DNA from: Patescibacteria group bacterium
GTDB taxonomy: Bacteria; Patescibacteriota; Microgenomatia; Levybacterales; UBA12049
Direction: 5' to 3'
DNA: 64,000 nucleotides
Assembly (NCBI GenBank): GCA_038064195.1
Contig: JBBTTO010000003.1
Span: 114,428 to 178,427, forward strand
Each line of letters opens with the position of its first letter. The first letter of the stretch is position 1. Made by a program: the position numbers and the translations under genes. Of the stretch, positions 7,374 to 56,157 are shown piece after piece. Under the pieces are notes generated by a model. It made no database searches. It saw nothing but the letters and a program-made list of their open reading frames with translations, and had not been told where the DNA came from.

Positions 7374-7742
7374 ATTTTTTGTGTTAAGAATAATTGTTGA
7401 AAGTAGTTTTTTAATTTGATCACATTCATCCGAAGCTCTCTCTATTTCTTGCTGCATATTCTTATTGATTTCTTTTAAGAGAGCGAGCCAATAAAGAGTT
7501 TCTGAAGCAGACTTCAAAGCGATATTGAAGAAGTTTAGGAATTCTTTTTTTGAGGTACTGTTCCCACCTTCTACGACATTTGCGCCAATTGATGTCCCTG
7601 AACGGATAAGCTGGTCAAGTAGTGGCCAATTTGTTCTATTACTTCTAAGATTTTCCGACAAGGCAAGTATAACTAGAGAAAAAGAAAAGCAACGTTTTTT
7701 AAATTCTTGTTTGAACGTATTTTGCTTATTTGGCTCTCCCAT
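7353..7742 (-). CDS. four-helix-bundle protein (23S rRNA intervening-sequence protein family)
   Basis: GANVVEG core and overall pattern of the S23 ribosomal/IVS four-helix-bundle family; the start codon abuts the right IR. Confidence 0.8.
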   Translation of the reverse strand: MGEPNKQNTFKQEFKKRCFSFSLVILALSENLRSNRTNWPLLDQLIRSGTSIGANVVEGGNSTSKKEFLNFFNIALKSASETLYWLALLKEINKNMQQEIERASDECDQIKKLLSTIILNTKNNSRTLN

Positions 7743-7771
7743 TCTGAATTCTAAAATCTGAATTATGAATT
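7741..7771. repeat. right inverted repeat partner of 7324-7373
   Basis: ATTCTGAATTCTAAAATCTGAATTATGAATTA. Confidence 0.6.
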
Positions 7772-7774
7772 AGT

Positions 7775-10627
7775 CTACGGCGCAACCTCCTGCCAGATGA
7801 AGTTGGGGACACGCAGGAATTCAGGCGCGTTGAGGATCATATCCGGTCGTTCACGAATCGTGAATGACGGGAAGTTGATATTGTCAGTACACAGGTCACG
7901 TGAGTTGATAAAGTTACCACCACTTCCTCCTGCGTTGACAACTATAGCCCCTTGAACATTGAGTTGTTTGTCAGGGATCGGACTCGGACTTGCCGAGCAG
8001 TCAGCTGTAGCAGGATTGGTACTTGAGCCACTCGGTACACTGAAATTTTGGTCAGCGCTGAAAAAGCCTTCTAAATTACCACTGCCTATGACAGGTCCCG
8101 GACAGGCAGCAGTCCTACCCAGGCTCGGGTCAACTGTTATTGACCCTGAGACCGAGTAAAAGACAGTTGAAGTCGTCGGGACACTTAACGTGCCTTTCAA
8201 GGTCAGATCGCCATTGACGAGTATGATGATATCCCGATTAGCGCTTGCTGTAAAGTTGTTAAGAGTAACTGAGCTATTAGCTTGATAGATACCATTTGAC
8301 AAGCCTCCGGGAAGAGTACAGTTATTGAGGTTGCTACATACTGTCGTGAGATTAGTGGGCGTGATATTGGACTGCTTCATAATTGACTGCAAGTAGCCGT
8401 AGGATGTCTGGATGAGCGTACCGTTACTCGGAACAAATGTCTCAGGATAGGCAGCTCCACCGACCAGCCAGCCATTTGAGGAGACGTTTCCCTGCCAGAA
8501 GTTCGCGGGCGCGGCGCCTGTGAAGGCGACACCGGGTGTTGAAGATGACCCGGGAAGCATGGCATAAGCACCTGTACAGGAGGCATCAGGGCTTGGAGGT
8601 ACAGGATTACTGATTCCTGTGTCAAAGCGGACATCCAGACCATACGCCTGCCACCAGGGAAGTCCTCTTTTTATCGCGAAATTGAGATTTTCCAGATTAT
8701 TGTTATTGCAATTTCCTCCGGGTGAGGGAGTAGCTTCTGCACAGCTTGAGCCGACTGGCGCTATAAATGAGGCGGGCGGTCCGTTACGCGGGTGATTCAT
8801 GATGTAGCCTGTTGGCAGGCTCGGGTAACGGACTGTGTATTGACCTGAGATAAGTCCAGTCAGCGTATAGCTGCCATCTGGGTTATTGGTAATAAGCGGG
8901 TTAGGCGCGCCTCCAGGATAGTTAGACATCAGAATACCGGGACTAGCTGCGAAGTTCGTCTCTGATCCGTTTTTCCTCTGACTGTCATCGCTGTCCACAA
9001 AGACATTACCCGAGATTTGGTATTTGCCGAAGAACTTCAGATCCCGTTGATGCGCGTCACCGGCAGTAATCGTTAGCGGCCGGGGATAGGTGGGGAGAGA
9101 GACATAGTCAGTCCCGGGATCGGCGGTGAGGAGGAAGTCTCCCGGTTCGATAGCTGTGATGAGGAAGTCGCCGTTGGCATCAGATCTGTCAGAGCGGGAT
9201 TGCTGGGTGCCTTGGGGAACCGCGTGGACGACGACGCTTGCAAGCGGCATATCTTTAGCGCTGTTAAAGTCCCCGCTACTCATTGAGCTGCTGCTTTTGT
9301 CAGCGTCAACATAGATTTTCCCAGCGATAGTATAGACGCGGTTGATCCCGATGTCAGCTGTCCAGCCGTTTTGGGTTGAGTTAAGAGGTATCGTGATAGT
9401 ACGGGTATTATCATTGTTAGGATAGGCTTTGTAGTCTACAGGTACTGTCAGCGTGACAGTATAATTTCCGCGCTTTTTATTAGGGAAGGAGTATCGTCCG
9501 GTCGCGTCAGTTGTCGTCGTGCCGCCTTCACCTGCTGGCCCTGTCAGGGTGACTGTTGCTCCCGAGTAGCCTGTGGTTTCAGTAGGATCTTTCGTGCCGT
9601 CTCGATTGTCATCGATGAAGATATAGCCTGAGAGGTCGTAAGTCGGGATAGCCGCGAAGCGGATACGGGTATTAGGGCCGAGGGTTGTCGTACGGGGATT
9701 GGTATTGACGGTACGCCAGGAGTTACTCGAGAAAGTAAGTGCATAGTCACCGCCCGCGCGGTAATCGAAGTCATAGTCTCCGTTGGAGTTGGTCGTATGT
9801 GAGCCGATTGATACTCCGTTACGCGTCGCGGATATTCTTACTCCGGCGACCATCGGTTCACCCGTGTCGCACTGAGCGTCTTCATTTTGACTCCAGCAGA
9901 CAGAGCCGTAGAGATGAGCATAGACATCATAGGTAGTAGAGCCGACATTATTCGCGTCGCTGTGTTCGGCGAGATTGTTGCCATAATCAGCGTAAACCCT
10001 CAGAGTATACGTGTCTGCTTCGTTTTGCGTAAAGGTTTGGTTATTAAAAGTCGTATAGTTACTGCCCCCAGTCCATGACATATAGTCTATAGATGTAATA
10101 GGGAAGTTAGCTCCTGAACTAAATTGCATCGTAGGCGTGCCGTTATTGTAGGCTGTTGAGTCTTTAAATACCGCATGCCCGGCCCAGCAGCAAGTCCATT
10201 CATCCCCAATGTTATTAATTGTTGCTCTGATAGCAATATCTTGACCTGTTATAAAATATCCGGCACTCGGATTTGCTCCGGTCGACGTTCTCGCATCGAC
10301 CTGTGTGACCGTGAAGTCTGGATAGGTAGGTACGGGAGTTGGAGTTGGCAGAGGCCCCCCACCCCCACCAGGGCAAGCAGCGGGTTGACAACAATAACCA
10401 ACAATATCCCCGGGGGTTGCCTGGCACGTAATAGTATAACTTGGTTGATTTGGACAAAATGGCAAACGTGTACACAAGGCGTTGTCCATACATCCTGCTT
10501 GACCATCACATGCAGGCACTATTGCAGCTTGAGTTTGATAGAAACTAAATAAAGAGAAAAGTCCGATAATAGAGCCCACAAAAATAAGCCCGTTAAATAA
10601 GAAAAATCTTGATAAGTAGTGTTTCAT
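7775..10627 (-). CDS. large (950 aa) secreted/surface protein, N-terminal TM/signal anchor, Cys-rich module, Gly/Pro linker, Ser/Thr/Asn-rich beta-repeat domains
   Basis: N-terminal hydrophobic segment, PGGGGGPLPTPTPVP linker, SdrD/Cna-B-like repeats (GDYxxT, DxDxDG motifs). Confidence 0.65.
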   Translation of the reverse strand: MKHYLSRFFLFNGLIFVGSIIGLFSLFSFYQTQAAIVPACDGQAGCMDNALCTRLPFCPNQPSYTITCQATPGDIVGYCCQPAACPGGGGGPLPTPTPVPTYPDFTVTQVDARTSTGANPSAGYFITGQDIAIRATINNIGDEWTCCWAGHAVFKDSTAYNNGTPTMQFSSGANFPITSIDYMSWTGGSNYTTFNNQTFTQNEADTYTLRVYADYGNNLAEHSDANNVGSTTYDVYAHLYGSVCWSQNEDAQCDTGEPMVAGVRISATRNGVSIGSHTTNSNGDYDFDYRAGGDYALTFSSNSWRTVNTNPRTTTLGPNTRIRFAAIPTYDLSGYIFIDDNRDGTKDPTETTGYSGATVTLTGPAGEGGTTTTDATGRYSFPNKKRGNYTVTLTVPVDYKAYPNNDNTRTITIPLNSTQNGWTADIGINRVYTIAGKIYVDADKSSSSMSSGDFNSAKDMPLASVVVHAVPQGTQQSRSDRSDANGDFLITAIEPGDFLLTADPGTDYVSLPTYPRPLTITAGDAHQRDLKFFGKYQISGNVFVDSDDSQRKNGSETNFAASPGILMSNYPGGAPNPLITNNPDGSYTLTGLISGQYTVRYPSLPTGYIMNHPRNGPPASFIAPVGSSCAEATPSPGGNCNNNNLENLNFAIKRGLPWWQAYGLDVRFDTGISNPVPPSPDASCTGAYAMLPGSSSTPGVAFTGAAPANFWQGNVSSNGWLVGGAAYPETFVPSNGTLIQTSYGYLQSIMKQSNITPTNLTTVCSNLNNCTLPGGLSNGIYQANSSVTLNNFTASANRDIIILVNGDLTLKGTLSVPTTSTVFYSVSGSITVDPSLGRTAACPGPVIGSGNLEGFFSADQNFSVPSGSSTNPATADCSASPSPIPDKQLNVQGAIVVNAGGSGGNFINSRDLCTDNINFPSFTIRERPDMILNAPEFLRVPNFIWQEVAP

Positions 10628-11196
10628 TAGTTTGTAAGAGTAATAGTGAAGGGATTATTTTCTGGTTTTTCACCGTATCCCCAAAAAAGAGATTTAAATC
10701 CATCCCTAGGAGGAGGCGAATGATTTACATTTTGCAGGGTTGCTATTATTCCGGCTGGAATCGAAACTCTCAAGCCATTTATATATTTTTTATCTTTTAC
10801 TTCGTCTGGGTCTATATATATTAGGATTTTTACATCATTATTTCCCACTTTCGAGATCAAACTAAAGTTAGTAATAGGTATTGGATTGTCTGCACTTTTA
10901 ATTGTTCGATATGTATTGAGGGGTCTAATTTTGTTAGTTGTCTCAAGTGTGATTTTAGATATTTTAGGTGTTTTAGGGTCTGACTTGATTGCTTCTTTAT
11001 TCCAATCTTTCAATTTTCTCTCAAATTCAGGCGAGCTTTTGTATTGAATAGTATAGTTCTTACTGGTATTTTTGATATTTATAAAATTGTTACTCTTAAC
11101 TACAAAGAAAAGTAAAAAAAGATTGATTATTAGTAAAGATACGAGGATGCTGATTAAAATAATATTATTAACTTTCATTTTAGCAAAAAGATGCAC
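10627..11196 (-). CDS. hypothetical membrane-anchored protein
   Basis: N-terminal TM helix ILISILVSLLIINLFLLFFVV. Confidence 0.5.
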   Translation of the reverse strand: MHLFAKMKVNNIILISILVSLLIINLFLLFFVVKSNNFINIKNTSKNYTIQYKSSPEFERKLKDWNKEAIKSDPKTPKISKITLETTNKIRPLNTYRTIKSADNPIPITNFSLISKVGNNDVKILIYIDPDEVKDKKYINGLRVSIPAGIIATLQNVNHSPPPRDGFKSLFWGYGEKPENNPFTITLTN

Positions 11197-11240
11197 TCTC
11201 CTTAAGTGTATAAATCAGTATTTGTAAAGTCAAGAAAACT

Positions 11241-11736
11241 CTTTACATATTTCTTATAGAGATATACTATATGTAAAGTATCTACTTCGAGTAGGAATAA
11301 TTTGCTCTACTATATTCATCATGAGAAAGAATTTTAAAGAACTATTGCTGCATTACAGCTTAGATTGTATACCGCCCATACGGCGGCGATAGTCTTATGA
11401 AAAAGAGACAGCAGCCTATTATTTCCTCTTCTTCTCCCTCTCTGCTCTCTCTTTTTTCTTTTTTCTCCTCATCTTTATCGGCAGGTATTCCCCGCCTAAT
11501 TCCCGATTTTAGCCTCAGCGAGCATCCCATAGGCTTGACATTAGACCTATAATATGTTAACATTTGAAGCTTAGCACCTTAAAAAGCTAGCTTTCGTAGG
11601 AAGTTATTCGACCAGCAGCCTCTGTTTGATTATGTATATTGTTTCTCAATTGCGAGATGATAATTTATATAGTCTTCAGATTGTCTCCTGTTCGGATCGT
11701 CTTTCTACGAATTACTTGACAATTTTTGCTCTGATC
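11241..11736. repeat. left arm of ~0.5-kb imperfect terminal inverted repeat
   Basis: The core 11371-11736 aligns in inverted orientation with 14504-14871 (e.g. ACCGCCCATACGGCGGCGATAGTCTTATGAAAAAGAGACAGCAGCC vs revcomp ACCGCCGATACGGAGGCGATAGTCTTATGAAAAAGAGACAGCAGCC). The outer part 11241-11278 matches the revcomp of 14967-14998. Confidence 0.85.
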
Positions 11737-11848
11737 TCCGATGTTAGATCGGTGGCTTTGTGCTCATAAAAGTGGGTACAAAGCTACCGGTCAACGTACC
11801 TGCCTTACCGGTAGCATGTCTTTGGACTTTTTGTTCGAATAACGCCCG

Positions 11849-12640
11849 GTGACGGGCAAGGAGACTTCGATGAACCGCCGTAACCTTTTCTCGATCGTTT
11901 TCTCGTTCGTTTTCACGTTGTCGTTGTTTGGTTCGGCACTGGCCGATGACCCCAAGGTGGCGCCCGTAGTGGCGACTCCGGAACAGGTCACCTTGACGAC
12001 GAAGACTCTCGCCGAGTGGGCGACCCTCGTGAGCGATCACGATCCGGCCGCGCTCGACATGATGTCGAAGAAGGCCGTCAAGGCCCTCTTCGGCACCGAC
12101 GACTCCGCGACGCTCGTGCAGTACCTAGCGATCAAGTTCGAGACCCAGATCTATCCCGTCGATGATGGGACGGTCACAGTCCCGAGCGAAGGGCAATTCG
12201 CTGCGACCGTGTCCTTTCGTGGGTTTTACACCGCGATGGGGTACTACACGGTGAAGCTTCGCTTGGTGGATAACGGTGGGGAGTTCCTCACCATCGACTC
12301 GGCGAAGCTCAGCTCTCCGGTGTTTCCGGAGGGCACGAAGCCGACCACGATCAAGCTCACCATCGCGCCGGATGTTCCGGCGGTGCTCTCTACCAATGGA
12401 CTGGATGTGTCGGACTTCGTCGTCCTAAGCATTGTGAGCACCGATGTTCAGACCCACGTCATCACCCTGGTCAAGCCGGGCAAGAGCCCGCTCGACCCAG
12501 CCAACTGGCTTGGCATGGCGATCATTAATCCCGAGAAGAAGGGGAAGATGGGTCTCGCCGGCCTTCCGGCTGGCACGTACGACGTGATCGACAGCACCAT
12601 GGCCGCCGACATCCTCGTTGGCCAGATTACCGTCAAGTAA
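11849..12640 (+). CDS. secreted hypothetical protein (GC-rich cargo gene)
   Basis: Signal peptide MNRRNLFSIVFSFVFTLSLFGSALA; GC content clearly above surroundings. Confidence 0.6.
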   Translation: MTGKETSMNRRNLFSIVFSFVFTLSLFGSALADDPKVAPVVATPEQVTLTTKTLAEWATLVSDHDPAALDMMSKKAVKALFGTDDSATLVQYLAIKFETQIYPVDDGTVTVPSEGQFAATVSFRGFYTAMGYYTVKLRLVDNGGEFLTIDSAKLSSPVFPEGTKPTTIKLTIAPDVPAVLSTNGLDVSDFVVLSIVSTDVQTHVITLVKPGKSPLDPANWLGMAIINPEKKGKMGLAGLPAGTYDVIDSTMAADILVGQITVK

Positions 12641-12751
12641 TTCAATTCACCGCAAAGTGCGGTACAAGAAGGACGAACCCCCACCGAATCCCGGTGGGGG
12701 GCGTTCTCCTCTCCTTAAAAAGTGAAGAGAGAAGAACGCCAACCATAGGTA

Positions 12752-13726
12752 ATGCTAATGCCCATAAGTATGAATAAAGATTCTGGACCAATACATATAA
12801 GCAGTAGTGATCGCATGTCTCGCCGAGCTTTTTTGGTTGCTAGTGCAGGTGTAGCAGCAGGTGGTGCTTCTGTAGCCGTGGATGTAATTAGAGGCATGCG
12901 ACAAAACCCTCCTGCCATTGAAGAAGTCCCTGAACCGACTCCAGAAACAGCTCCTATTAATTTAGCACCTGATGGTGCATATTATTCTTTACTAGTAGAT
13001 GATGAAGCAAATAGTCTCATGGGTGAGACTGGGGTAGCGCTAATTGATAAAGAGATGCAGAACTTTGCTGTTTTTCATCCTAAGACCACTATACGAGTCA
13101 GTAAAGAAGGGGGCGATTTTACTCCTGAACAATTTCTCTATTCAGGAGATGCGTTAGCTAAGCTTGAGGTTGATATCCCATTTGTTGTCCTACGATCTGT
13201 TCTTGAGCGTGTGCTAGCAGAAGCACAAGAGCCAACGACCCTTAATGGTGCAAAGCTGAAAGCACTTGGTGAATTTGCATTATTTCATCAGACTGTAACT
13301 GATAATGACCGAGCTCTGGATATCTTTAATCCTGCAGGGAATGTAGAATTATCGGAAGATGCCGCTGCCTATGTTGAAGCTTATAAGTCATGCCTTTATG
13401 ATCCCTTATCTTATTTTGCAGCAGTTGGAACGACCATTTATCGTAATACACGTCATCTGGGTCCAATAATTAATAATATTCCTGACGAAGCTGTACAAGA
13501 ATTCACTAATTCAGTCGCAGCAGCGCAAGGTACTCCTACAGTAGTTCTTCATGAGTCATCTGATAAAAAAGTATCGAGGAACACTGTTATCTATGAGAGA
13601 GATCTTTTACGAGCCTTGATTACCCCCTATGGTATTAAAGATTCTACTGAAGCCGATGAGTCAATCGAAGAGTCTATGCACGGTTTTCATCAGCTAACTA
13701 AGGAATTAGGAATTGATGAAGTGTAA
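12752..13726 (+). CDS. hypothetical exported protein with twin-arginine-like signal
   Basis: SRRAFLVASAGVAAGGASVA near the N-terminus. Confidence 0.55.
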   Translation: MLMPISMNKDSGPIHISSSDRMSRRAFLVASAGVAAGGASVAVDVIRGMRQNPPAIEEVPEPTPETAPINLAPDGAYYSLLVDDEANSLMGETGVALIDKEMQNFAVFHPKTTIRVSKEGGDFTPEQFLYSGDALAKLEVDIPFVVLRSVLERVLAEAQEPTTLNGAKLKALGEFALFHQTVTDNDRALDIFNPAGNVELSEDAAAYVEAYKSCLYDPLSYFAAVGTTIYRNTRHLGPIINNIPDEAVQEFTNSVAAAQGTPTVVLHESSDKKVSRNTVIYERDLLRALITPYGIKDSTEADESIEESMHGFHQLTKELGIDEV

Positions 13727-13948
13727 AGCGTTTTAAATTGATTTAAACCCCACTCCACATATTTTTTGATCGAGTTCGCAACAATAGAGTATAAGTTGGT
13801 AGACATTACTATTTCTGCAGGCACTAGCGTTGACTTTATTTTAATAAATGGTGAAATTTTTGGCATGAAAAAGCCCCGCACATAGCTATGGCGGGGCTCT
13901 TTCGTCTTGTCCCCATAGGGGATGCGAGTTACTTCGAGCGAGCACGAC

Positions 13949-14395
13949 CTAGTCGGCCGTGGGTGCGTGGGGGTACCGAACCGCCCATTCCGTGACGACG
14001 AAATCGTCTTCGCTGGTTCCCGTCAGGTGGAGCTCATCGTACGAGAGGGCGCCCTCGTGGCTGAACCCCGTGTAGACGATCCGGATATTGAGCTCATCGT
14101 GCAGGTCGAAACCGACGTACGGCAGCGCGACGATCCCGGCGCTGACCGGAGTCTCCGGCAGCCCGACTCGTGCTTCCGGCGCGACCATGTCGATCCAGCT
14201 CGGATTGCCGGATGCTATCTTTTCGAAGAGCTGCTTCATGAACCACTCGACGCTCGCCTGTAGCTCGACCGAAGGGGTCGGATTGGGGCGGGCGGCAGTA
14301 GTAGTGGAGCGAACTCCTCCGATTGCGGCGGCGGTGAGGCCACCGGCTATCGCAGCGAAACGACGACGACTAACTATAACAGTACTACCGTTCAT
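13949..14395 (-). CDS. small exported hypothetical protein (GC-rich cargo gene), Tat-like signal
   Basis: Start taken at MNGSTVIVSRRRFAAIAGGLTAAAIGG (GGAGG 5 nt upstream); the longer listed ORF (to 14584) runs into the right repeat arm and is probably not translated. Confidence 0.5.
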   Translation of the reverse strand: MNGSTVIVSRRRFAAIAGGLTAAAIGGVRSTTTAARPNPTPSVELQASVEWFMKQLFEKIASGNPSWIDMVAPEARVGLPETPVSAGIVALPYVGFDLHDELNIRIVYTGFSHEGALSYDELHLTGTSEDDFVVTEWAVRYPHAPTAD

Positions 14396-14503
14396 GCATG
14401 CCTCCTCGGCTTGTGAGCTTGCGCCCTTGTGCCAATTGCTACGGAAGTCCCGCGCATGATCGACAACTTTATAGCGAGGAAATTCCTCAGCCATGAAGTT
14501 GTC

Positions 14504-14998
14504 GATCAGAAGACAAAAATTTGAAGTAACTCGTAGGAAGACGATCCGAACAGGAGACACCCAGACGTTCATACAATTTGTCACCTCGCAATTGAGAGAC
14601 TTTTTATACGAACAAGCTGAGGCTGCTGGTCGAATAACTTCCTACGAAATATTAACTTGTAAATGAGCGAACCCGTGTATCCTAATCTATTATAGGACAG
14701 CTGTCAAGGTTATGAGACATCACAAGCTCCGGAGTTAGAAAATATGAAAGGGAGCCTGAGGCTAAGCGGATTAGTGAAGAGAAAAAAGAGAGAGCAGTGG
14801 AGAGAGAAAAGTAAAAAAATAGTGGCTGCTGTCTCTTTTTCATAAGACTATCGCCTCCGTATCGGCGGTATGTGATTCAGCCAGTAATGCAGTCTGAGCT
14901 GATTAGAATTAATTCTCATATGATTATAGTTGAGCCAAACGTTCTCAAAAGCTTTTTCTATTTCAAATATAGTATATCTTTATAAGAAATATGTAAAG
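14504..14998. repeat. right arm of ~0.5-kb imperfect terminal inverted repeat
   Basis: See the left arm; contains the polypurine complement (GAAGAGAAAAAAGAGAGAGCAGTGGAGAGAGAAAAG) of the left-arm CT tract. Confidence 0.85.
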
Positions 14999-15377
14999 AT
15001 TTAATTAAAAGGATGAGTAGGCTGAGATATAAATACGCGAAAATTACGTATATCATGTAAGAATTTAGGAAGAAAGATAATTATAGAAAAATAGCAGAGG
15101 GAGGATATAGTCTGTAAAGATGTTGAAGAAGCGATATTGCCCTGACCTTGATTATAAGCAGTAGGTAAATATCCCGATTATGGTTGATGTGAATAAAGAT
15201 AAATGATTGAGGATTGAGGAATAATTGCATTCCCGCATTGTTGTATTGTCTTCATGTATTAGCCTTGCTTTCATGTTGAAAGTTGCAATAATCAGATTAT
15301 GGATGAGAGGCAGGAGCTTGACATCGTCTAGTCTCAGTGCTATAGCAGGCTAGCACTAGATAATTTCAAAACTGTAT

Positions 15378-16844
15378 ATGACAGAGCAAGATACGCAAGT
15401 TAAACTATCCCGTCGCGACCTTTTCAAAGCCGCGGGCACTTTTGCTCTTGGCACTTTTGTACTTGAAAATAAAGGGTTGCAGGTCGCAAGCGCGCAAGAA
15501 CAAGTCCCTACCGTTATTAAAGAGATATTCACCTCAGATCCTAAAGAAGTTAATAGTATGCAGCATGATCAGATCACGCTTATGAGTACTTTTGAAGACG
15601 AGTCTGGGGTATCGGCAATTCTTAATATGACACCAGATGGTGCACAAGGCATTCCTTCGCGCTTACAGCTTGCGAAATACGATGCTTCTACAAGCCAGTT
15701 TGGTCAATTTCAGGAGATAGGGAGGGCTCCGATGAATGACTCCGAGGCAATTGCCCTCTTGCCCGGTGAGACTGAACATACCCTTGGTATCCTGGCAGGA
15801 GTAAATGAAGGACATACTCAATTAGATGCAAATGGAGAGGCTGCTGTCCCGCGTCTATTTTTTTCAGGTGACGAAGGGAGAAGATTTGATGAAATTGATC
15901 TTACTGATCAAAATGGAGAGAAGCTATCCCATGGGATGATTTTAGACGTTAGACGAATTCCACAGTCTCGTATTGGCTTAGTTCAAGTAATTCTGCCTAA
16001 TAGAGAGACAGGGTATGGCATTGTAGATTCTGAGACTAAGCAGTATATACCAATTCCTAGTGAGTCGTCCGTGCCTATACTTGATGATATTACTCTCAGT
16101 AAGGACGGTTTAATCTTAAGTGGCGTAGGGAGAGTGGTAGAGCGTGATAGTGGTGGGTTTCAAAAATTAAAAGCAATTTCAAGGATTGAAATTGACTTAC
16201 AAACGAACACAGTTATAAGTAATTTTGAGATTTATCAGAACGATGAGGCTTTTGCATTTAAGTCAATGGGGGTGAGGCATGATGAGCAGGGGGATCCGAC
16301 AGTAGGCTATGCTGTACAAAAATATACGACAAGTCGCGAAGGAGATAGACATTACTATAAAATAGATCTTCAGACAGGAGAGGTACAAGCAGTTGACTAT
16401 GGCCCTATCTTAGACCAAATCGTCCTAAAATATGTTAGGCCAGAGCAATTTATGCCTAAGGAGCTTTTTGTTGGCTCATTTCCGGTGGTTACCAAAATAA
16501 CACCAGTTGCGGGGGGTAATTTATTTACCGGTAGACTTCAAATACCTCAAGCCGGTTCACACCCAATGGCTGTTTTTATACCTGAAGGAGTAGATCCAGT
16601 TAATGAAATTGATAAAGTTATTAACTGGCCTTTTAACGAGTTGCGTATTTTCCCGGGGGAGATAAAGCAAATTGAGATAGCTTCATTCCCTTCAGATCCT
16701 TTTGCGAGAAATCAGGAATCTCCGGTTCCAAATCATGGATTTCTTTTGAATATGAGTGCCTGTGGACAAGCCTTTATCCCCACAAATGAAAAATATGAGC
16801 CGATCGGCAGTGAAGTTCTGTATGCAATTAAAAGCCAGGGATAG
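15378..16844 (+). CDS. hypothetical exported protein with twin-arginine-like signal (488 aa)
   Basis: LSRRDLFKAAGTFALGTFVL. Confidence 0.6.
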   Translation: MTEQDTQVKLSRRDLFKAAGTFALGTFVLENKGLQVASAQEQVPTVIKEIFTSDPKEVNSMQHDQITLMSTFEDESGVSAILNMTPDGAQGIPSRLQLAKYDASTSQFGQFQEIGRAPMNDSEAIALLPGETEHTLGILAGVNEGHTQLDANGEAAVPRLFFSGDEGRRFDEIDLTDQNGEKLSHGMILDVRRIPQSRIGLVQVILPNRETGYGIVDSETKQYIPIPSESSVPILDDITLSKDGLILSGVGRVVERDSGGFQKLKAISRIEIDLQTNTVISNFEIYQNDEAFAFKSMGVRHDEQGDPTVGYAVQKYTTSREGDRHYYKIDLQTGEVQAVDYGPILDQIVLKYVRPEQFMPKELFVGSFPVVTKITPVAGGNLFTGRLQIPQAGSHPMAVFIPEGVDPVNEIDKVINWPFNELRIFPGEIKQIEIASFPSDPFARNQESPVPNHGFLLNMSACGQAFIPTNEKYEPIGSEVLYAIKSQG

Positions 16845-41105: not shown

Positions 41106-41155
41106 GTTAGCCTTGAAATTAGTGAATTTAGCCTCAACTCAAGGCTGGGAGGAGA

Positions 41156-41184
41156 CTTGACAAAGATCCCATAGTAATATATAT
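41156..41184 (+). promoter_or_regulatory. sigma70-like promoter TTGACA-17-TATATT firing into a ~550-nt noncoding stretch
   Basis: Near-consensus -35/-10 with a 17-nt spacer immediately after the cysS terminator region. Confidence 0.45.
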
Positions 41185-41189
41185 TATAG

Positions 41190-41745
41190 GTCTCTTATCG
41201 TAGAGTTTACGATACGCGGAGATTGACAATTGAGCCTTTACTTTTACCAGCCATACATAAGAGATCCTGTCCTCTTATACATGCCTATTTAGGCACGACT
41301 TACAGGGCTGGTTTTTTGTTGGCTACAAAGTAGCCAACACCCCTCTTATGCGCTCTTCGAGTCGTGTACGAATAGTACTGAAAAGACGAGAAGTAAGCTT
41401 TGTGGGGTTGATACCTTTATCTTAGCCACAGCTGGAGTCAGTTCGGTTTGATTATTGAAGCTAAATAGCTTCACTGCTTACGGAACTGAATCTAGCGTTG
41501 GCTAGCAATAGTTAACGTTACTAAGGTGGATAAATTTGTCTCTAGAGCGAAAGTTCTACAAGATGAGCTTTGATATCTTAGGAACCCAAGACATGTGTCC
41601 ACTCTCCGATGTAAATCGGAGGCGTAGCGGTGACTCCGCTGCAGGCTGTCTCGGCGAGTTTAGCCTTAGACGAAAGTTTGAGAACTAGGCTCAAGGAGCA
41701 GCAAGTGGAAATTTGAAGGTATTGCCTTCAAATTTCCACTTTAAT
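41190..41745 (+). ncRNA. candidate long structured noncoding RNA (unclassified)
   Basis: No ORF over 60 aa; many local hairpins; ends in a perfect 15-bp hairpin followed by TTTAATTT. Confidence 0.3.
41705..41739 (+). terminator. intrinsic-terminator-like hairpin GTGGAAATTTGAAGG-TATT-GCCTTCAAATTTCCAC
   Basis: Perfect inverted repeat followed by a T-rich tract. Confidence 0.55.
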
Positions 41746-42064
41746 TTGAGAGATATTGTTCGAGTTAATCGAGAACTTCTCGATGCGGGTTTCACCCTTA
41801 CTCGAAGAATAAAAAGCACTTTCACAAATGAAAGTGCTCTTACGTCCCGATGACATCGGGATTGGCGAAGAGCACCCTTATGAGAAATTCGAAGCACGAA
41901 TTTCGAATAGCGAAACCCCACTTCGTCCCGCTTTGGCGGGACTACGAAGGGGCAAAGCAAAATAGGTTTCGTATTTCGGATTTAGGATTTCGATATTTCC
42001 GTCGGGGTGGTCTTCGTCAAAGACTAGAGTTTGGTCGTGTTGCAGAGAGCAACTACAGACTCTT

Positions 42065-42481
42065 TTGGAGACAAATTCCATGCCATCCAATGCTACTGAG
42101 GCAGTTTTCGACGTAGTTGCGATCATTACCTTTGGAGGCGTGATCTGGATGATTTTCGCCACCATCAATCTCTTTTTCTTTGAGGTTATCAGGTGGTGGA
42201 CCGGTCGCGATCTCGAATGGGGCTTCATCGTCTCTCACAGGGCGGAGGAAGCCATCGAGGTGCGTGGGTTGATGCGTAACATCTTCGTTTACTCATCCGG
42301 AATCGTCGCATTCGTTTTTTTCGTTGTCTATCTCTATGTCGGACCCCGGTTCGGCAGTTGGTGGGCGACAGCGGCGTTTTTCTCGGCGTGGCTACCTTTT
42401 TTGTATTGGTATGCCAGATCCTGGCAGATCGCCAGGATAGTTCGCCGGGAGGCTCTCCAAGCCCTTTACGCTAGGGATTAG
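42065..42481 (+). CDS. small membrane protein (3 predicted TM)
   Basis: GGAGA RBS 8 nt upstream; hydrophobic helices. Confidence 0.5.
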   Translation: METNSMPSNATEAVFDVVAIITFGGVIWMIFATINLFFFEVIRWWTGRDLEWGFIVSHRAEEAIEVRGLMRNIFVYSSGIVAFVFFVVYLYVGPRFGSWWATAAFFSAWLPFLYWYARSWQIARIVRREALQALYARD

Positions 42482-42760: not shown

Positions 42761-43138
42761 CAGTAATTTTTATTGTTATATCAGTTGTCTTTGATTTCAT
42801 AGGTAAATGACTGTCTTGGTTTTACTGCCGGAGTTTGGCCTTACGGCCAAGCTCCGGCAAGGAGTCTTAGGAAAGGTGAAAAAATGCTGACAAAATAGCA
42901 TTGTCAAGCGAAAGCTCTCTCCTTCTGATATCGTAGTTTTTATACTAAGCACTGCATATCTTTGATAAAAAGCAAACTATTAGCTATGAACTATTTACTC
43001 ATAGCTGGTTGTTTGGTCTTCGTCAGAGACTAGCCCTGTGTCGCTGGGGGTGATTTTGCCTTCAGGGTATACCGGCTTACGCACCGGGAGAAAAAAAGTG
43101 GTATTTATTATCCAGAATCTTTTCTCTTGGCGTCGTCC

Positions 43139-43334
43139 CATGTCGGACTCGGGAGCTCCGGTGGAGTCACCTGCTGAGCTCAGAGCGCAGATGCAGCACG
43201 GTTGCTGCATATTCTGTGGCGACTGCAGTGCCCCCACAGCGTGGGGATGCAGTAAGTGCTGGTCCTATGGGGCTGGGTTGAGTGGGTCGTCACAAGATGC
43301 TCCCGCTCCGTTACTGGAGCGAATGAGTGTCTGA
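43139..43334 (+). CDS. small Cys-rich (3x CxxC) zinc-ribbon-like peptide
   Basis: HGCCIFCGDCSAPTAWGCSKCW; the start is uncertain (the listed ORF begins with GTG at 43038). Confidence 0.3.
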
Positions 43335-43354
43335 GACGCCCAAAAATTTTTATG

Positions 43355-43384
43355 CTCGGGGGTTGCCGTAAGGCGACCCCCGAG
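43355..43384 (+). terminator. terminator hairpin CTCGGGGGTTGCCGTAAGGCGACCCCCGAG + T7 run
   Basis: Immediately followed by TTGACTAGAGCAA. Confidence 0.6.
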
Positions 43385-43478
43385 CTTCTCTTTTTTTGAC
43401 TAGAGCAAGAAGAATAATCGATTCTGGACGCACTGCGTTTGCCAGAATGACGATGGTTTTTATTGGTCTAGTCAACCT

Positions 43479-43495
43479 ATCCGCAATGTGCGGAT
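43479..43495. promoter_or_regulatory. operator-like perfect palindrome ATCCGCA-ATG-TGCGGAT 5' of AGGAGG-N5-ATG
   Basis: 7-bp arms, 3-bp spacer, 18 nt before the start of 43514. Confidence 0.5.
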
Positions 43496-43513
43496 GTAGA
43501 TCAGGAGGAAAAA

Positions 43514-43777
43514 ATGAGTAAATCTAGAATGGGTGTCCTCCTCATTTTTGGGGATGGTCACTTGAGCGGTTCTCAGCTTCGTGAGGTCCTCACGGATGGA
43601 CCGATCGTAATCGAGCATCTGAAAGTCTCATCGACTACTGATGAGCGGATCGCGAAGATCCCTGAGGGATTTAGCCTCAGGGCAGTCGCAATTCGTTCTG
43701 ATGTCGGCTCTGGAGCACTGGAGGAAGCTCAACGATTTGCTGAAAATCAAGGAGGAATTTTTTTGATTATCTCCTGA
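43514..43777 (+). CDS. hypothetical 87-aa protein (possible small alpha/beta fold)
   Basis: Strong RBS; alternating beta-alpha pattern; no recognisable motif. Confidence 0.5.
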   Translation: MSKSRMGVLLIFGDGHLSGSQLREVLTDGPIVIEHLKVSSTTDERIAKIPEGFSLRAVAIRSDVGSGALEEAQRFAENQGGIFLIIS

Positions 43778-43800
43778 TTACATGTACTGGGCGAGTTGCT

Positions 43801-43828
43801 CCGCCTCGGGTTTCAAACCCCGGGGCGG
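43801..43828 (+). terminator. terminator hairpin CCGCCTCGGG-TTTCAAA-CCCCGGGGCGG + T run
   Basis: Followed by TTGACTAAAGCAA; the same GGGCGAGTTG...GGGGCGGGCACCGTCTTTT context recurs at 44506-44559. Confidence 0.55.
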
Positions 43829-43892
43829 GCACCGTCTTTTTTGACTAAAGCAAAAAGTTTCACAACAGAAATTTATTGGTCTAGTCAACCCG

Positions 43893-43908
43893 GTCGCCAG
43901 TTGGCGAC
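43893..43908. promoter_or_regulatory. palindrome GTCGCCA-GT-TGGCGAC between TTGACT box and gene start
   Basis: Perfect 7-bp arms directly after the shared TTATTGGTCTAGTCAACC block. Confidence 0.4.
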
Positions 43909-43951
43909 TGTTACTGATCATTTTTCGTTATCCCTCAGAAAGGGGAAATCG

Positions 43952-44485
43952 ATGCAACTGTTGTCTCGTCGTTCCAAAGTCGAAGCACTTTCGCCGGCGG
44001 ATCAGCAGGAGGCCTCAGCCGCGGCTCTCCAGATCAACTGCGACGCCGATGCCGCGCGCTTGATCCAGATTTACCAGTTCAGCTGGCGTCATCTTGAGCT
44101 TTGGGTCGCTGAGAGGCGATCCACCAACATCGGTTTCGACTTCCGTCGCAATGGTGGCATGGAGCGCCTGAATAAGGCAATTCGCGTCATTAAGGAAGTC
44201 GACGTCGAGTACGTCCTCTACAACGAGCCGAAGCGGCACTACAAGGACGACTACCAACGATGGTTGGTCGTTATGATGCTGGCCAAGGCGGCCGGCGTCG
44301 AAGAAGTGTCCAACTTTGAGGATGGCATCCTCCACGAACAGTTCATCGGGCAGGGGACGATATCCCTTTGCCACAGCAAGAACTGCGCGTGGATCACCGT
44401 GACCGGCGCGGGCTACAACCCCGATCCAGACACCAATCCTCTCTACCGGAAAACGATCATCTACACGAGGCGCACCGACATCTAG
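43952..44485 (+). CDS. hypothetical 177-aa protein
   Basis: Start at MQLL, with GGGGAA 7 nt upstream; the listed longer ORF includes the upstream repeat. Confidence 0.5.
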   Translation: MQLLSRRSKVEALSPADQQEASAAALQINCDADAARLIQIYQFSWRHLELWVAERRSTNIGFDFRRNGGMERLNKAIRVIKEVDVEYVLYNEPKRHYKDDYQRWLVVMMLAKAAGVEEVSNFEDGILHEQFIGQGTISLCHSKNCAWITVTGAGYNPDPDTNPLYRKTIIYTRRTDI

Positions 44486-44682
44486 GAGCGCCTCGACATT
44501 CTTGGGCGAGTTGTCCCGCTTCGTCGGCCTTCGGGCTTACGGGGCGGGCACCGTCTTTTATTTCTGATCCCGATTTAATCGGGACTGACAGTGAGCGAAA
44601 AGTTTCGTTAATTCGAAATTTCTCGTTCCTTAGTCAGGAGCCGGCGACCGATTGGTTGCTGTCATCATATGGAGGAAATGCA

Positions 44683-44976
44683 ATGAAATTGACAAGGAAG
44701 TCTGTCCTCGATCAGGTCTTCGACTTGGTGGAGGAGCAACTGCGGACCAACCGCAGAAGCAACTCACGGGACGAAACCCAGATTTACGTGGGTGGTATGA
44801 CCTATCGCCCCGAGGTCCGAGAGGAGGATGGCAAGTATGTCGTGAAGATCACGATGTCCTGTGCTCGCTGTCCTGACAGAGTGTCCGAGCTTCGCTTCAA
44901 CACCTGGTTGGGATGGATTCCTCTCTGGAAGTCCATCCAGATCCAAAGTTTCATTAATGAGCATTCTCCCCGATGA
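44683..44976 (+). CDS. hypothetical 97-aa protein
   Basis: GGAGGA RBS 6 nt before the ATG. Confidence 0.45.
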   Translation: MKLTRKSVLDQVFDLVEEQLRTNRRSNSRDETQIYVGGMTYRPEVREEDGKYVVKITMSCARCPDRVSELRFNTWLGWIPLWKSIQIQSFINEHSPR

Positions 44977-45058
44977 TCGTCTTGGGAGCGTCTCGCCCGC
45001 CTCCGCCACGTGGTGGGGGCGGGCGGACAAACCCCTATCTTTGAAAATTATTTTTAGG

Positions 45059-45089
45059 CCCGACTTTGTTAAAACAACGACGGGCAAGC
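45059..45089. repeat. direct repeat copy 2 (duplicate of cysS internal segment)
   Basis: CCCGACTTTGTTAAAACAACGACGGGCAAGC. Confidence 0.8.
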
Positions 45090-45121
45090 TCCACGCCGCA
45101 CGACGTGCTATGAGGAGCAAA

Positions 45122-56068: not shown

Positions 56069-56153
56069 GCGGAGGGAGGGAGATTCGAACTCCCGGAATC
56101 TTGCGATTCGATGGTTTAGTAAACCATTGCACTAGGCCACTATGCGATCCCTC
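56069..56153 (-). tRNA. type-II (long variable arm) tRNA, Ser-like, anticodon loop UUACUAA (anticodon ACU, unusual A34)
   Basis: GGAGGGA/TCCCTCC acceptor, 3-bp D stem with GG in the loop, ATGGT-TTACTAA-ACCAT anticodon arm, 16-nt variable arm, GGGAG-TTCGAAT-CTCCC T arm, discriminator G, CA encoded. Confidence 0.7.
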
Positions 56154-56157
56154 CTTA

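Follow-up and report, generated by a model that had tools for sequence, protein, structure and literature searches.

According to the genomic-island and amelioration concept, which reportedly goes back to Lawrence and Ochman, atypical acquired DNA drifts toward the composition of its host. The vsp, vsa and vlp loci of Mycoplasma are variable surface-protein loci with conserved 5' regions. Correia elements of Neisseria and other MITEs are hairpin repeats that contain promoter boxes and undergo RNase III cleavage. The lifetime or processing of an mRNA can also be set by stem-loops in its 5'UTR, of which the ompA leader of E. coli and RNase III sites are examples. The locus analyzed here, positions 11237–15002 of a 64-kb stretch of Levybacteria DNA (the window), shares some properties with each of these systems and departs from each in others. 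It has three genes between two inverted repeat arms. On balance, the segment probably represents two convergent copies of one cassette that arose by an old inverted duplication; the coding part would be an ancient import whose high GC3 has since been maintained.

Genes 1 and 3 are compositional outliers. The initial annotation estimated both by eye at about 60% GC with G- and C-ending codons dominant, and proposed that GC, GC3 and codon adaptation be computed. The host reference consists of the 41 other ORFs of the window, with a GC of 0.437±0.039 and a GC3 of 0.415±0.064 (highest GC3 0.517). Gene 1 has a GC of 0.595 and a GC3 of 0.805 (z +6.1), and gene 3 has values of 0.620 and 0.725 (GC3 z +4.8). 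With a codon-adaptation index trained on host genes, z is -5.8 in gene 1 and -3.9 in gene 3. The estimate was accurate, and by GC3 and codon adaptation both genes have the atypical composition taken as a sign of foreign DNA. At the four-fold sites of gene 1 the third base is A, C, G and T in 5, 41, 41 and 14%, as compared with 23, 26, 20 and 30% in host genes. GC1 (z 0.5) and GC2 (z 1.2) of gene 1 are near the host level, so the anomaly is concentrated at third positions. Gene 2 had been described as near-host in composition; this is correct for its overall GC (0.416), but its GC3 of 0.245 (z -2.6) is at the low extreme. The GC switch at the gene ends is complete within approximately 100 nt, and the regulatory flanks of the cassettes, both RNA and DNA, have a host-like composition unlike that of the coding part.

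The two arms are approximately 490 nt each, are 80% identical and include a 31-nt exact inverted repeat. The outer module of the left arm (positions 11237–11529, + strand, GC 0.38) is mirrored in the right arm (14711–15002, - strand), and nhmmer detects it in L090, L094, L009, L013 and L012. It contains a promoter-like palindromic block, TTTACA-17-TACTAT, at 11242–11270, and folding shows a CCGCC...GGCGG hairpin at about 11372–11387 and, at 11400–11466, a 15-bp hairpin with a T-run behind it. The predicted promoter of the gene 1 cassette (11511–11563, + strand) consists of a AGCCTCAG box, CCCATAGG-CTTGACA, a 17-nt spacer with CCTATAAT, and TAACAT. It is the best sigma-70-like site of the region (10/12 positions), and the motif is found upstream of all cassettes; the composite motif occurs three times in the window, where 0.01 is expected. 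The predicted promoter of the gene 3 cassette (14679–14707, - strand) has TTGACA, a 17-nt spacer and TAGGAT, and is conserved in relatives. The best promoter-like sites are located at equivalent positions in both arms. The inverted repeat is best read as a promoter and 5'UTR present in duplicate, with each copy predicted to face inward at a GC-rich gene. The same promoter class is found with other GC-rich ORFs of the window, at 61982–62608 (no signal peptide) and at 42081.

A 118-nt hairpin is found twice, once close to where the 5'UTR of gene 1 is predicted to begin (11593–11710, + strand) and once in the gene 3 5'UTR of the right arm (14531–14648, - strand). The inner leader of gene 1 (11711–11869, + strand, GC 0.47) has a hairpin GGCTTTGTGCTCA...TGGGTACAAAGCT, a hairpin GCCCGGTGACGGGC and the Shine-Dalgarno sequence AAGGAGA at 11857–11863; it aligns with L008, L090 and L094, to which nhmmer adds L009 and L012. 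The inner leader of gene 3 (14396–14530, - strand, GC 0.49) has the Shine-Dalgarno sequence GAGGAGG at 14407–14401. The 3' trailer of gene 1 (12650–12738, + strand) consists of hairpin A (12650–12662), the linker TACAAGAAGGACGAA (12663–12677), a GC-rich hairpin B without a T-run (12678–12701) and hairpin C (12702–12738). In L008, L090, L094, L093, L009, L012 and L013, the A-linker-B layout is also seen behind cassette genes. The trailer of gene 3 (13868–13921, - strand) has hairpin A (13921–13911), the linker ACAAGACGAAAGA (13911–13899), hairpin B (13898–13873) and a T-run (13872–13868), and this layout, as read from the sequence, is kept in L008, L013, L009 and L012. One trailer layout is common to cassettes of both protein families. 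Read on the + strand, the gene 3 trailer probably doubles as the terminator of gene 2, which is probably co-transcribed with gene 1.

The 118-nt hairpin is highly stable and phylogenetically conserved. The gene 1 copy has an MFE of -42.7 kcal/mol (z -4.4) and a covariance-model score of 132 bits in the sense orientation versus 21 bits antisense; the gene 3 copy has an MFE of -50.8 kcal/mol (z -6.5) and a sense score of 142.6 bits. RNAalifold predicts 44 pairs from six sequences, 18 of them compensatory. In an alignment of ten sequences, 87% of cells are paired and both sides change in 30 of the 44 pairs; none of 500 shuffles reaches the observed level, and slid controls are 39–47% paired. There are 12 sense copies in 11 Levybacteria loci (40–143 bits sense, 17–32 antisense), every one upstream of a GC-elevated ORF. 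No further copy is present in the rest of the window or in approximately 1.2 Mb of related loci, and a search of the arms against Rfam 15 gives no match at gathering scores or at E values up to 10. A dispersed repeat of the MITE or Correia type was considered and rejected, as all 12 copies in the 11 loci occupy one position upstream of one gene set. The hairpin appears to be a previously undescribed RNA leader that is conserved through compensatory changes.

Gene 1 (11870–12640, + strand) encodes 256 aa, with a signal peptide at residues 1–25, an alpha/beta domain at about 35–150 and a cupredoxin-like beta sandwich at about 155–256. Its start is more likely the ATG at 11870, with AAGGAGA ahead of it, than the GTG at 11849. 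The AF2 model has a pLDDT of 86.9, with a low-confidence N-terminal helix at the signal region. Foldseek comparison of this model finds auracyanin (1qhq and 2aan, TM 0.55–0.58) and similar laccase folds, and the family profile matches the blue-copper protein 6kol (E 1.2e-5). The model places the C-terminal ~100 residues in the cupredoxin beta sandwich fold. The type-1 copper ligands (His, Cys, His, Met) are absent; the protein has no Cys at all, and therefore no type-1 copper site. In most family members the residue after G-x-Y-x-V-(V/I) is Asp. Gene 3 (13949–14395, - strand, start ATG 14395 after GAGGAGG) encodes 148 aa and consists only of an RR-type signal (SRRRFAAIAGGLTAAAIGG) and an alpha/beta domain. 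The latter is a homologue of the gene 1 N-terminal domain (hhalign probability 94%, E 1e-7), so that genes 1 and 3 are remote paralogues. Gene 2 (12770–13726, + strand) encodes 318 aa; the ATG at 12770, common to its sole orthologue, is the more likely start as compared with 12752. Its single homologue found is in L008 (78% identity), and homologues of gene 3 are found in L008 (67% identity) and L013 (E 8e-19). The dN/dS values, 0.27 for gene 1 against L008, 0.24 for gene 2 and 0.38 for gene 3, indicate that all three are real genes. None of the three proteins matches a Pfam or NCBIfam family, in agreement with the initial annotation, which recognized no catalytic motif.

The peptides that the annotation quoted as export signals, one read as Sec-type and two as Tat-like, are all present in the translated sequences, as is the RR signal claimed for the neighboring gene at 15378–16844. 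The Tat-like motifs are visible by eye as SRRAFLV in gene 2, SRRRFAA in gene 3 and SRRDLFK in 15378–16844, each followed by an Ala/Gly-rich core. However, gene 2 falls just short of the threshold of each Tat-signal model (13.9 versus 22.7 bits for Pfam, 15.3 versus 16.7 bits for TIGR01409), and gene 3 and the neighbor have no match to these models. A syntenic neighbor in L093 exceeds the model threshold at 26.4 bits. The N-terminus of gene 1 has a strongly hydrophobic core, a cleavage-type site between SALA and DD, and an RR pair. By eye, MNRRNLFSIVFSFVFTLSLFGSALA followed by DD would fit a Sec-type signal peptide, but with its RR pair gene 1 may instead use Tat. TatA and TatC have been reported in Microgenomatia (PMC9166423). 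Approximate probes for the two proteins gave no match in 1.35 Mb of DNA, which includes the 64-kb window of a genome of perhaps ~1.08 Mb.

The cassettes appear to form a family, defined by a common promoter, the 118-nt hairpin leader, a common tail and a GC3-rich coding part. They are found in at least ten Levybacteria lineages in one neighborhood of cell-surface genes, which extends from a giant adhesin to rpsB-tsf-frr; RpsB of the 11 loci with a hairpin is 65–95% identical, where measurable. The promoter boxes are TTGACA-17-TAnnnT after CCTATAG, with an AGCCTCAR box in most copies, and the trailer linker is GACGAA, between hairpin A and the GC-rich hairpin B. The flanks meet the coding sequences in the same register, with the Shine-Dalgarno site and the signal-peptide start conserved, and at least three unrelated types of small exported protein have the common promoter. 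In every relative examined, the GC3 of the coding part exceeds that of the neighboring genes, by 0.17 to 0.40 across lineages and by up to 0.6 when the cassettes are taken one by one. The values are 0.81 and 0.73 in the window (neighbors 0.415), 0.73 and 0.76 in L008, 0.72 in L090 (neighbors ~0.33), 0.69 and 0.73 in L094 (~0.38), 0.77 in L009 (0.40), 0.63 and 0.78 in L012 (0.32), 0.60 in L013 (0.36), 0.59 and 0.54 in L091 (~0.37), 0.46 in L093 (~0.23), 0.59 and 0.63 in L098 (~0.3–0.4), and 0.68, 0.80 and 0.93 in L099, where three cassettes are in tandem (~0.32). Single copies are present in relatives in the same chromosomal neighborhood, and at a dS of 0.5–1.1, L008 matches the window both in the order of the three genes and in its GC mosaic. 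RpsB of L094 is 95% identical and its cassette protein 26.5%; the corresponding values for L091 are 65% and 36.6%. The gene 1 signal peptide is nearly identical to that of P0012, a member of another subfamily, and unlike that of the L008 orthologue.

Of 1.84e9 representative proteins searched, 16 belong to the gene 1 family. For genes 1 and 3, the best homologues all come from related Levybacteria, where they occupy the same locus. Outside Levybacteria, identity does not exceed 29%, and the leader shared by the homologues of genes 1 and 3 is found only in Levybacteria-type loci. Four members have a context that is not Levybacteria-like, all on contigs of 58–69% GC: P0008 (69%), P0021 from a Thermomicrobiales MAG (67%), and P0017 and P0019 (58–59%). 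Two of the four adjoin equally GC-rich genes. The family tree is star-like, with these members interspersed among those of Levybacteria; the amino-acid composition of the latter is intermediate and differs from that of the proteins encoded on the 67–69% GC contigs. Because the only homologues outside Levybacteria are on these GC-rich contigs, an ultimate origin in a high-GC bacterium is plausible. Divergence of the cassettes is saturating, with protein identity down to 13–30%; even the closest pair has a dS of 1.1. Simple decay after a single old transfer was rejected, since GC3 stays high despite this divergence. The high GC3 does not appear to be the fading signature of a recent transfer.

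The initial annotation regarded the genes as cargo of a segment bounded by inverted repeats and suggested that they were horizontally acquired, possibly from a high-GC host or co-resident organism. An ultimate high-GC origin is plausible for the reason just given. It is highly improbable that a mobile segment of this kind recently brought genes of a high-GC host or neighbor into the genome, although the GC3 z-scores, the sharp GC boundaries, the long, similar arms and the family members on high-GC contigs would all fit. The arms are inward-facing copies of a promoter and 5'UTR, the same cassette is present singly at the same locus in relatives, and L008 already has the layout and mosaic of the window. 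The annotation had named best homologues from close relatives of the same composition as evidence against itself, and the outcome comes close to this, the best homologues being from Levybacteria with the same GC3 excess. Synteny and the conserved native flanks already contradict a recent import. No target-site duplication or flanking direct repeat was seen by eye at the segment; the few flanking ORFs scanned contain no match to a transposase or a Pfam mobility domain. A transposon was rejected on these grounds and because the inverted repeats are conserved upstream of single cassettes. An invertible, phase-variable segment was rejected as well; there is one orientation in three full assemblies and the flank contig L089, and no recombinase among the scanned neighbors. 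A recent genomic island was likewise rejected, as the best matches are not in distant taxa and the nearest outsider is so dissimilar. The sole tRNA of the window is at 56069, with none within 40 kb of the segment. The probability of an assembly chimera or contamination, with high-GC fragments joined into a Levybacteria contig, is negligible. The GC switches are sharp, and the breakpoints of short Logan contigs coincide with the 31-nt exact inverted repeat, but three assemblies made independently, including a 250-kb contig, are collinear across the locus at 99.2–99.5% identity, and it is therefore not a chimera. The same layout in the diverged L008 and the conserved flanks that join AT-rich and GC-rich parts in 11 loci also argue against it.

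Two convergent cassettes of ancient foreign origin remain the preferred reading, and some observations are not easily accommodated by it. The spread of the GC3 excess is that expected from different acquisition ages, neither selection nor biased conversion would easily raise GC3 to the 0.93 of one L099 ORF in a genome of 43% GC, and the star-like tree with interspersed members would allow several transfers. It is possible, if unlikely, that coding sequences from high-GC sources were installed again and again between native flanks, with GC3 tracking their age. The range of cassette GC3 from 0.46 to 0.93, including the tandem of L099, would follow, as would the lack of parallel between cassette protein and organism distance in L094 and L091, the mosaic recombination suggested by the P0012-like signal peptide, the interspersed high-GC-contig members and the unrelated protein types on one promoter. 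On the other hand, there is no donor above 29% identity among the representative proteins, a non-exhaustive search revealed no integrase, attC-like site or capture machinery, the flanks adjoin the coding sequences in one register with conserved Shine-Dalgarno site and signal start, and exchange among Levybacteria alone can explain the mosaicism. Distinctly unlikely is an endogenous origin, by which a native family had its GC3 made and kept by selection, e.g., on mRNA stability or on translation control of the regulon, or by GC-biased conversion, and the high-GC members obtained the gene from Levybacteria or are deep vertical relatives. The third-position anomaly, the intermediate amino-acid composition, the single promoter class of GC-rich ORFs, including 61982–62608 and the ORF at 42081, and the AT-rich gene 2 inside the segment, which makes the effect gene-specific, are consistent with it. 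Yet the high-GC-contig members match the composition of their neighbors, which gives transfer a simpler polarity; we know of no precedent for selection keeping GC3 at 0.8–0.9 in a 43% GC genome, and reported effects of GC-biased conversion in bacteria are much smaller than this. A doubtful but conceivable proposal is a dedicated Levybacteria regulon with long-lived messages, marked by AGCCTCAR-TTGACA promoters; the mRNA of its exported-protein cassettes would combine the 118-nt 5' hairpin, the double-hairpin trailer and very high GC3. GC-richness would then either be adaptive or result from intense recombination between alleles, with GC-biased repair, at a locus of host interaction, and compositional "alienness" would be generated and maintained from within rather than be a mark of foreign origin.

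In the preferred model of an old inverted duplication, a high-GC bacterium, perhaps similar to Chloroflexota, would have been the ancient source from which the lineage obtained the coding module, which would then have come under native control before it was duplicated, recombined and diversified. Each cassette, found only in Levybacteria-type loci, would comprise a sigma-70-type promoter, a ~300-nt 5'UTR that opens with the 118-nt hairpin, a Shine-Dalgarno site, a GC3-rich ORF for an exported protein and a trailer, with gene 2, host-like in GC, between the two copies. From the saturation of divergence, we infer that GC3-richness has since been upheld by a force on synonymous sites. Candidates are selection for stable mRNA and GC-biased gene conversion, the latter at a surface-protein locus that recombines and is highly polymorphic. 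The products may be exported binding proteins of the surface or the periplasmic side. The anatomy suggests co-regulation through the common promoter boxes and 5' hairpin, and the hairpin could control processing or stability, e.g., by serving as a target of RNase III or by protecting the 5' end.

In terms of the amelioration concept, the cassettes resemble acquired DNA in a GC3 and codon usage far from the host, in sharp boundaries and in relatives on high-GC contigs. They differ in having no mobility gene in the scanned flanks and no nearby tRNA, in being syntenic across the clade rather than patchy, in an anomaly that outlasts saturating divergence and in the native, conserved regulatory flanks around each coding sequence. 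The C-terminal beta sandwich of gene 1 is like that of the cupredoxins (auracyanin, plastocyanin-type proteins and the domains of two-domain laccases), and the protein is predicted to be exported with an RR-containing signal, as are many cupredoxins; unlike them, it lacks Cys and a type-1 copper site, has an extra N-terminal alpha/beta domain and is only ~20% identical. As in the vsp, vsa and vlp loci, cassette paralogues share a highly conserved upstream region and signal-peptide start while the mature parts are very divergent, copies occur in opposite orientation and there is evidence of mosaic recombination. In contrast to these loci, no recombinase or inversion variant was seen for the cassettes, both copies have complete promoters, the mature proteins lack repeats, and the GC3 anomaly has no counterpart.

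The hairpin is like ompA-type leaders in being a stable stem-loop of an mRNA for an exported protein, ~25 nt from where transcription is predicted to start, and in being combined with putatively protective 3' hairpins. It is much longer (44 pairs) and has no Rfam family match. With Correia elements and other MITEs it shares a length of ~120 nt, long imperfect inverted halves, a TTGACA at the 3' edge and a location in 5'UTRs. Unlike these repeats, it has two copies in 64 kb, a fixed position relative to one gene family across genomes, compensatory changes and a far higher score on the sense strand. Given the fixed position, the compensatory changes and the sense bias, the hairpin behaves like a leader RNA under selection rather than a repeat that spreads.

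Genes 1, 2 and 3, the three exported-protein genes of this region, are located at positions 11870–12640 (+), 12770–13726 (+) and 14395–13949 (−), respectively, in a window with a GC content of 44.8%. The 41 other ORFs of the window, used as the host reference, have a GC3 of 0.415 ± 0.064 with a maximum of 0.517. Gene 1 has a GC3 of 0.805 (z +6.1) and gene 3 a GC3 of 0.725 (z +4.8), which bears out the initial annotation in that both are much more GC-rich than the host. The anomaly of gene 1 is almost wholly in the third position (z of 0.5 for GC1 and 1.2 for GC2), and GC switches within ~100 nt at gene ends. Gene 2 had been described as near-host in composition; this holds for its total GC, which is host-like at 0.416, but not for its GC3 of 0.245 (z −2.6). 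Three independent assemblies, including one contig of 250 kb, agree on a collinear locus, and the observation is therefore real. Metagenomic samples with this population include ERZ1292623 (Hainich groundwater) and the SRR2238xxxx series. An assembly chimera is ruled out by this collinearity and by the same mosaic in a diverged relative. Antisense ORFs within the GC-rich genes are a chance expectation in GC-rich DNA; the sense frames have dN/dS values of 0.27–0.38.

A word-indexed search of 5.8 billion proteins revealed one relative only for each of genes 1–3, and all of these are on a single 3-kb contig (L008). The contig displays the same three-gene layout and GC mosaic, with GC3 values of 0.73, 0.21 and 0.76. 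Comparison with the window gives dN/dS values of 0.27 (dS 1.13) for gene 1, 0.24 (dS 0.53) for gene 2 and 0.38 (dS 0.62) for gene 3. The three genes are functional, and the mosaic is older than the split between the window and L008. The rpsB neighbourhood assigns the window to Candidatus Levyibacteriota (Levybacteria, Patescibacteria), and the closest species representatives have RpsB proteins 86–87% identical to that of the window.

The inverted repeat flanking the three genes consists of a left arm at 11237–11726 (+), which faces inward to gene 1, and a right arm at 15002–14515 (−), which faces inward to gene 3. The arms are ~80% identical to each other and have a host-like GC of 0.36–0.46. 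The two best sigma-70-like sites of the region are at equivalent positions in both arms: TTGACA-17-TAACAT at 11535–11563 (+) for gene 1 and TTGACA-17-TAGGAT at 14707–14679 (−) for gene 3. Approximately 25 nt downstream of each predicted start is a 118-nt imperfect hairpin (11593–11710, +, folding z −4.4; 14648–14531, −, folding z −6.5), and the differences between the arms in the distal hairpin stem are compensatory. An inner leader of ~160 nt follows; it carries a strong Shine-Dalgarno site as well as smaller hairpins. The arms are thus upstream regions and not the ends of a mobile segment carrying the genes as cargo, as had been proposed. A transposon or composite element is further rejected in that no transposase match is present among the flanking ORFs scanned and no target-site duplication was seen by eye at the segment. 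An invertible switch is rejected in that the assemblies compared show one orientation throughout and no inversion variant.

When family profiles are compared, that of gene 3 aligns with the N-terminal domain of the gene 1 family at a probability of 94% (E 1e-7). The convergent genes 1 and 3 are thus remote paralogues, and the segment is an old inverted duplication, around gene 2, of a whole cassette (promoter, hairpin, inner leader, Shine-Dalgarno site, GC3-rich ORF and 3' trailer). Hairpin similarity is 0.80 between left and right arms and 0.74 between the right arm and its L008 counterpart; the higher likeness between arms may be due to constraint or to some gene conversion. A small ORF in each arm, beginning MKKRQQP (11397–11552 and 14843–14682), is probably not coding, as its conservation is limited to the first seven codons, which form half of a conserved hairpin stem. 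The outer part of the arms (11242–11466, +, and its mirror 14997–14775, −) has its own promoter-like site, TTTACA-17-TACTAT, within a palindrome, followed by a CCGCC/GGCGG hairpin and a conserved 15-bp hairpin with a T-run. This module could represent a small RNA of ~190 nt or an insulator. In locus L094 it is present in the opposite orientation, upstream of another GC-rich ORF.

A covariance model built from six of the 118-nt hairpins detects 12 copies on the sense strand, spread over 11 loci and each ~100–250 nt upstream of a GC-elevated signal-peptide ORF. It finds no further match in ~1.2 Mb of Levybacteria rpsB neighbourhoods, and none in the four contigs that are not Levybacteria-like (L096, L097, L100 and L101). 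In an alignment of ten copies 87% of cells pair, and changes on both sides occur in 30 of 44 pairs; these statistics were reached by none of 500 shuffles, and slid controls pair at 39–47%. Sense scores are 40–143 bits versus 17–32 bits for antisense, which points to an RNA read in the direction of the gene. The hairpin has no match in Rfam and was not found by an exact-pattern scan of GTDB genomes, whose representatives apparently lack this species; a metagenome scan revealed only the left flank of the same strain (L089). A phage reservoir was considered and rejected, with no match in a scan of viral contigs.

The promoter is conserved upstream as well, with CCTATAG and AGCCTCAR boxes. The composite promoter motif is present three times in the window versus 0.01 expected, and in related loci, other copies of the same strain's locus excluded, it is found solely upstream of GC-rich ORFs. 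Cassette genes of both protein types have a common 3' trailer, in which a small hairpin is joined by an (ACAA)GACGAA linker to a GC-rich one. The conserved part, of host-like composition, is the regulatory frame, and the fast-diverging GC-rich part is the coding body. The gene 1 trailer has no T-run, which makes read-through into gene 2 likely. On either strand the hairpin at 13873–13898 is followed by a T-rich tail, and it is probably the terminator of gene 2 and of gene 3 alike.

The same promoter class, AGCCTCAA...CTTGACA-17-TATAAT, is found at 62712–62650 ahead of a 208-aa ORF (61982–62608, −) with a GC3 of 0.70 (z +4.5), a short leader without hairpin, no signal peptide and no Pfam match. 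A third copy, AGCCTCAA...CTTGACA-17-TATATT, is found in the region 41130–42080 (+), and the ~900 nt after it, without a convincing ORF, are visibly hairpin-rich; Rfam at gathering scores shows nothing there. This stretch may form an unusually long leader or be a non-coding RNA in its own right, and is followed by a 4-TM-like ORF (~42081–42481) with a GC3 of 0.63. Positions 43000–45100 form a patch of 55–60% GC with overlapping candidate ORFs on both strands, one of which (43949–44485) has a GC3 of 0.76 and no Pfam match. A bacterial topoisomerase IB (60103–61662, −) has a low-complexity N-terminal extension of ~200 aa that is GC-rich (61200–61600) and rich in Ser, Arg and Pro. The only tRNA of the window is a tRNA-Ser at 56069–56154 (−), to which ARAGORN assigns the anticodon ACT; the usual tRNA-Ser anticodon for AGY codons is GCT. 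Cumulative GC skew climbs almost monotonically across positions 1–64000, with the majority of genes on the plus strand, and no replication origin or terminus is apparent within the window.

A profile search with the gene 1 alignment against 1.84 billion representative proteins gave only 16 proteins, nearly all of ~245–385 aa and aligned over almost the whole profile. Most are in Levybacteria-type loci (L090, L091, L093, L094, L098 and L099) whose cassettes have a neighbourhood like that of the window: a giant adhesin with a small membrane-protein neighbour and/or rpsB-tsf-frr. Species representatives L009, L012 and L013 also have GC-rich signal-peptide ORFs at the syntenic spot; that of L013 is a clear gene 3 homologue (E 8e-19 in a local database), and those of L009 and L012 align with the gene 1 family. 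In the window the adhesin-like protein (7775–10627, −) has 950 aa with SdrD_B and CarboxypepD_reg repeats, and adjoins a 189-aa membrane-anchored protein (10627–11196, −; GC 30%). Both are syntenic across the clade and fast-evolving; the adhesin is 67% identical in L094 despite an RpsB identity of 95%. A Gp49/HTH toxin-antitoxin pair is directly downstream of the L094 cassette (7571–8248), at the place occupied by genes 2 and 3 in the window.

Coding GC3 of the cassettes exceeds that of neighbouring genes in every Levybacteria locus examined: 0.81 and 0.73 versus 0.415 in the window, 0.72 versus ~0.33 in L090, 0.69 and 0.73 versus ~0.38 in L094, 0.77 versus 0.40 in L009, 0.63 and 0.78 versus 0.32 in L012, 0.60 versus 0.36 in L013, 0.59 and 0.54 versus ~0.37 in L091, 0.46 versus ~0.23 in L093, 0.59 and 0.63 versus 0.3–0.4 in L098, and 0.68, 0.80 and 0.93 versus ~0.32 in L099. 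L099 (4086–4511 and 5034–5474) and L094 (5107–5523) encode another type of exported protein, which is small (138–146 aa) and contains Cys, with GC3 values of 0.73–0.93 in genomes of ~43–45% GC; at least two of these three ORFs are behind the cassette promoter class, and their structured leaders differ. In L012 a 101-aa ORF (2124–2429, −; GC3 0.78) with a Tat-like NRRSFLGLG signal is flanked by the promoter module on one side and, on the other, by the downstream cassette's 118-nt hairpin.

The export-type signals initially reported for all three genes are present. The motif S-R-R-x-F/L with an Ala/Gly-rich core is found in genes 2 and 3 and in the neighbouring gene 15378–16844. Tat-signal models place gene 2 just below thresholds and do not match genes 1 and 3; a syntenic neighbour in L093 exceeds the Pfam Tat-signal threshold (26.4 bits), and in L098 the 488-aa neighbour has a counterpart, similar at the N-terminus, with, by eye, the same RR motif. 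Probes for TatA and TatC gave no match in the 1.35 Mb of DNA examined, which does not inform on the genome as a whole. For Microgenomatia the presence of TatA and TatC has been reported (PMC9166423), and use of Tat export by these proteins is plausible. As the initial annotation had indicated, no catalytic motif is recognisable, and Pfam and NCBIfam give no domain match for any of the three products. AlphaFold modeling of gene 1 with a 20-sequence family alignment (pLDDT 86.9, pTM 0.81; pLDDT 39 with two sequences) reveals a signal helix followed by an alpha/beta domain and, at the C-terminus, a beta sandwich. This sandwich matches cupredoxins, namely auracyanin (TM 0.55–0.58) and two-domain laccases, and the family profile matches the blue-copper protein 6kol (E 1.2e-5). 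The protein has no cysteine, so a type-1 copper site is absent.

Four family members are in a non-Levybacteria-like context. P0008 and P0017 are on contigs of 69% and 59% GC, both with GC-rich neighbours, P0019 is on a 991-nt contig of 58% GC, and P0021, with an adjacent similar ORF, is in a Thermomicrobiales MAG of 67% GC. Neither hairpin nor promoter was found with these four. P0008 is 29% identical to gene 1, as close as several Levybacteria subfamilies, and the neighbor-joining family tree is star-like and does not separate single from multiple transfers. Entry from a high-GC bacterium into Levybacteria is the simplest polarity. The proposed high-GC horizontal origin is thereby partly supported, in that an ultimate foreign ancestry is plausible, but genes 1 and 3 have long resided in the lineage, as members of a structured cassette family that spans the clade. 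The recent acquisition that had been proposed is contradicted: a very large database contains no close donor, the native flanks have had time to accumulate dozens of compensatory changes, and the layout was already present in the L008 lineage at dS 0.5–1.1.

A single ancient transfer that merely decays is also insufficient, since divergence between cassettes is saturating and GC3 is still high; such genes would by now look host-like. One possible explanation is that GC3 is maintained, either through selection acting on the mRNA or through conversion that is GC-biased at a polymorphic, recombining locus; the absence of donors, junctions that keep a fixed register and the concentration of the anomaly at third positions are in keeping with this. 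Cassette protein distances do not track organism distances: RpsB identity to the window spans 65–95% among cassette lineages with rpsB in the same locus, and L094 (RpsB 95%) has a cassette protein 26.5% identical to that of the window, versus 36.6% in L091 (RpsB 65%). P0012, a member of another subfamily, has nearly the same signal peptide as gene 1, and that of the L008 orthologue is less similar, which indicates mosaic recombination among cassettes. No SNPs are present within genes 1 and 3 between the window and the strains compared (L001 and L003). It is also possible that an unchanging expression frame has received foreign coding sequences again and again; GC3 varies widely, reaching 0.93 in L099 behind the cassette promoter class, which fits such repeated capture.

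What is new here comprises a 118-nt leader hairpin, a promoter class, a conserved trailer and a persistent gene-specific GC3 excess. The analysis provides three handles on uncultivated bacteria: a strongly supported RNA motif of the 5'UTR, a regulon-defining promoter class, and an exported-protein family that couples an alpha/beta domain to a cupredoxin-like domain without copper, encoded beside a giant adhesin. These proteins are candidates for interaction of the cell surface with a partner organism. Recent horizontal transfer is commonly flagged by atypical GC content and codon usage. In this case the genes so flagged have long been at one locus, behind a lineage-specific regulatory RNA, in more than 10 Levybacteria lineages. 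Either a mechanism keeps the synonymous sites of a few genes GC-rich in an AT-leaning genome, or foreign coding sequences are repeatedly installed into a fixed cassette, and either would alter how compositional outliers in reduced (CPR) genomes are read.
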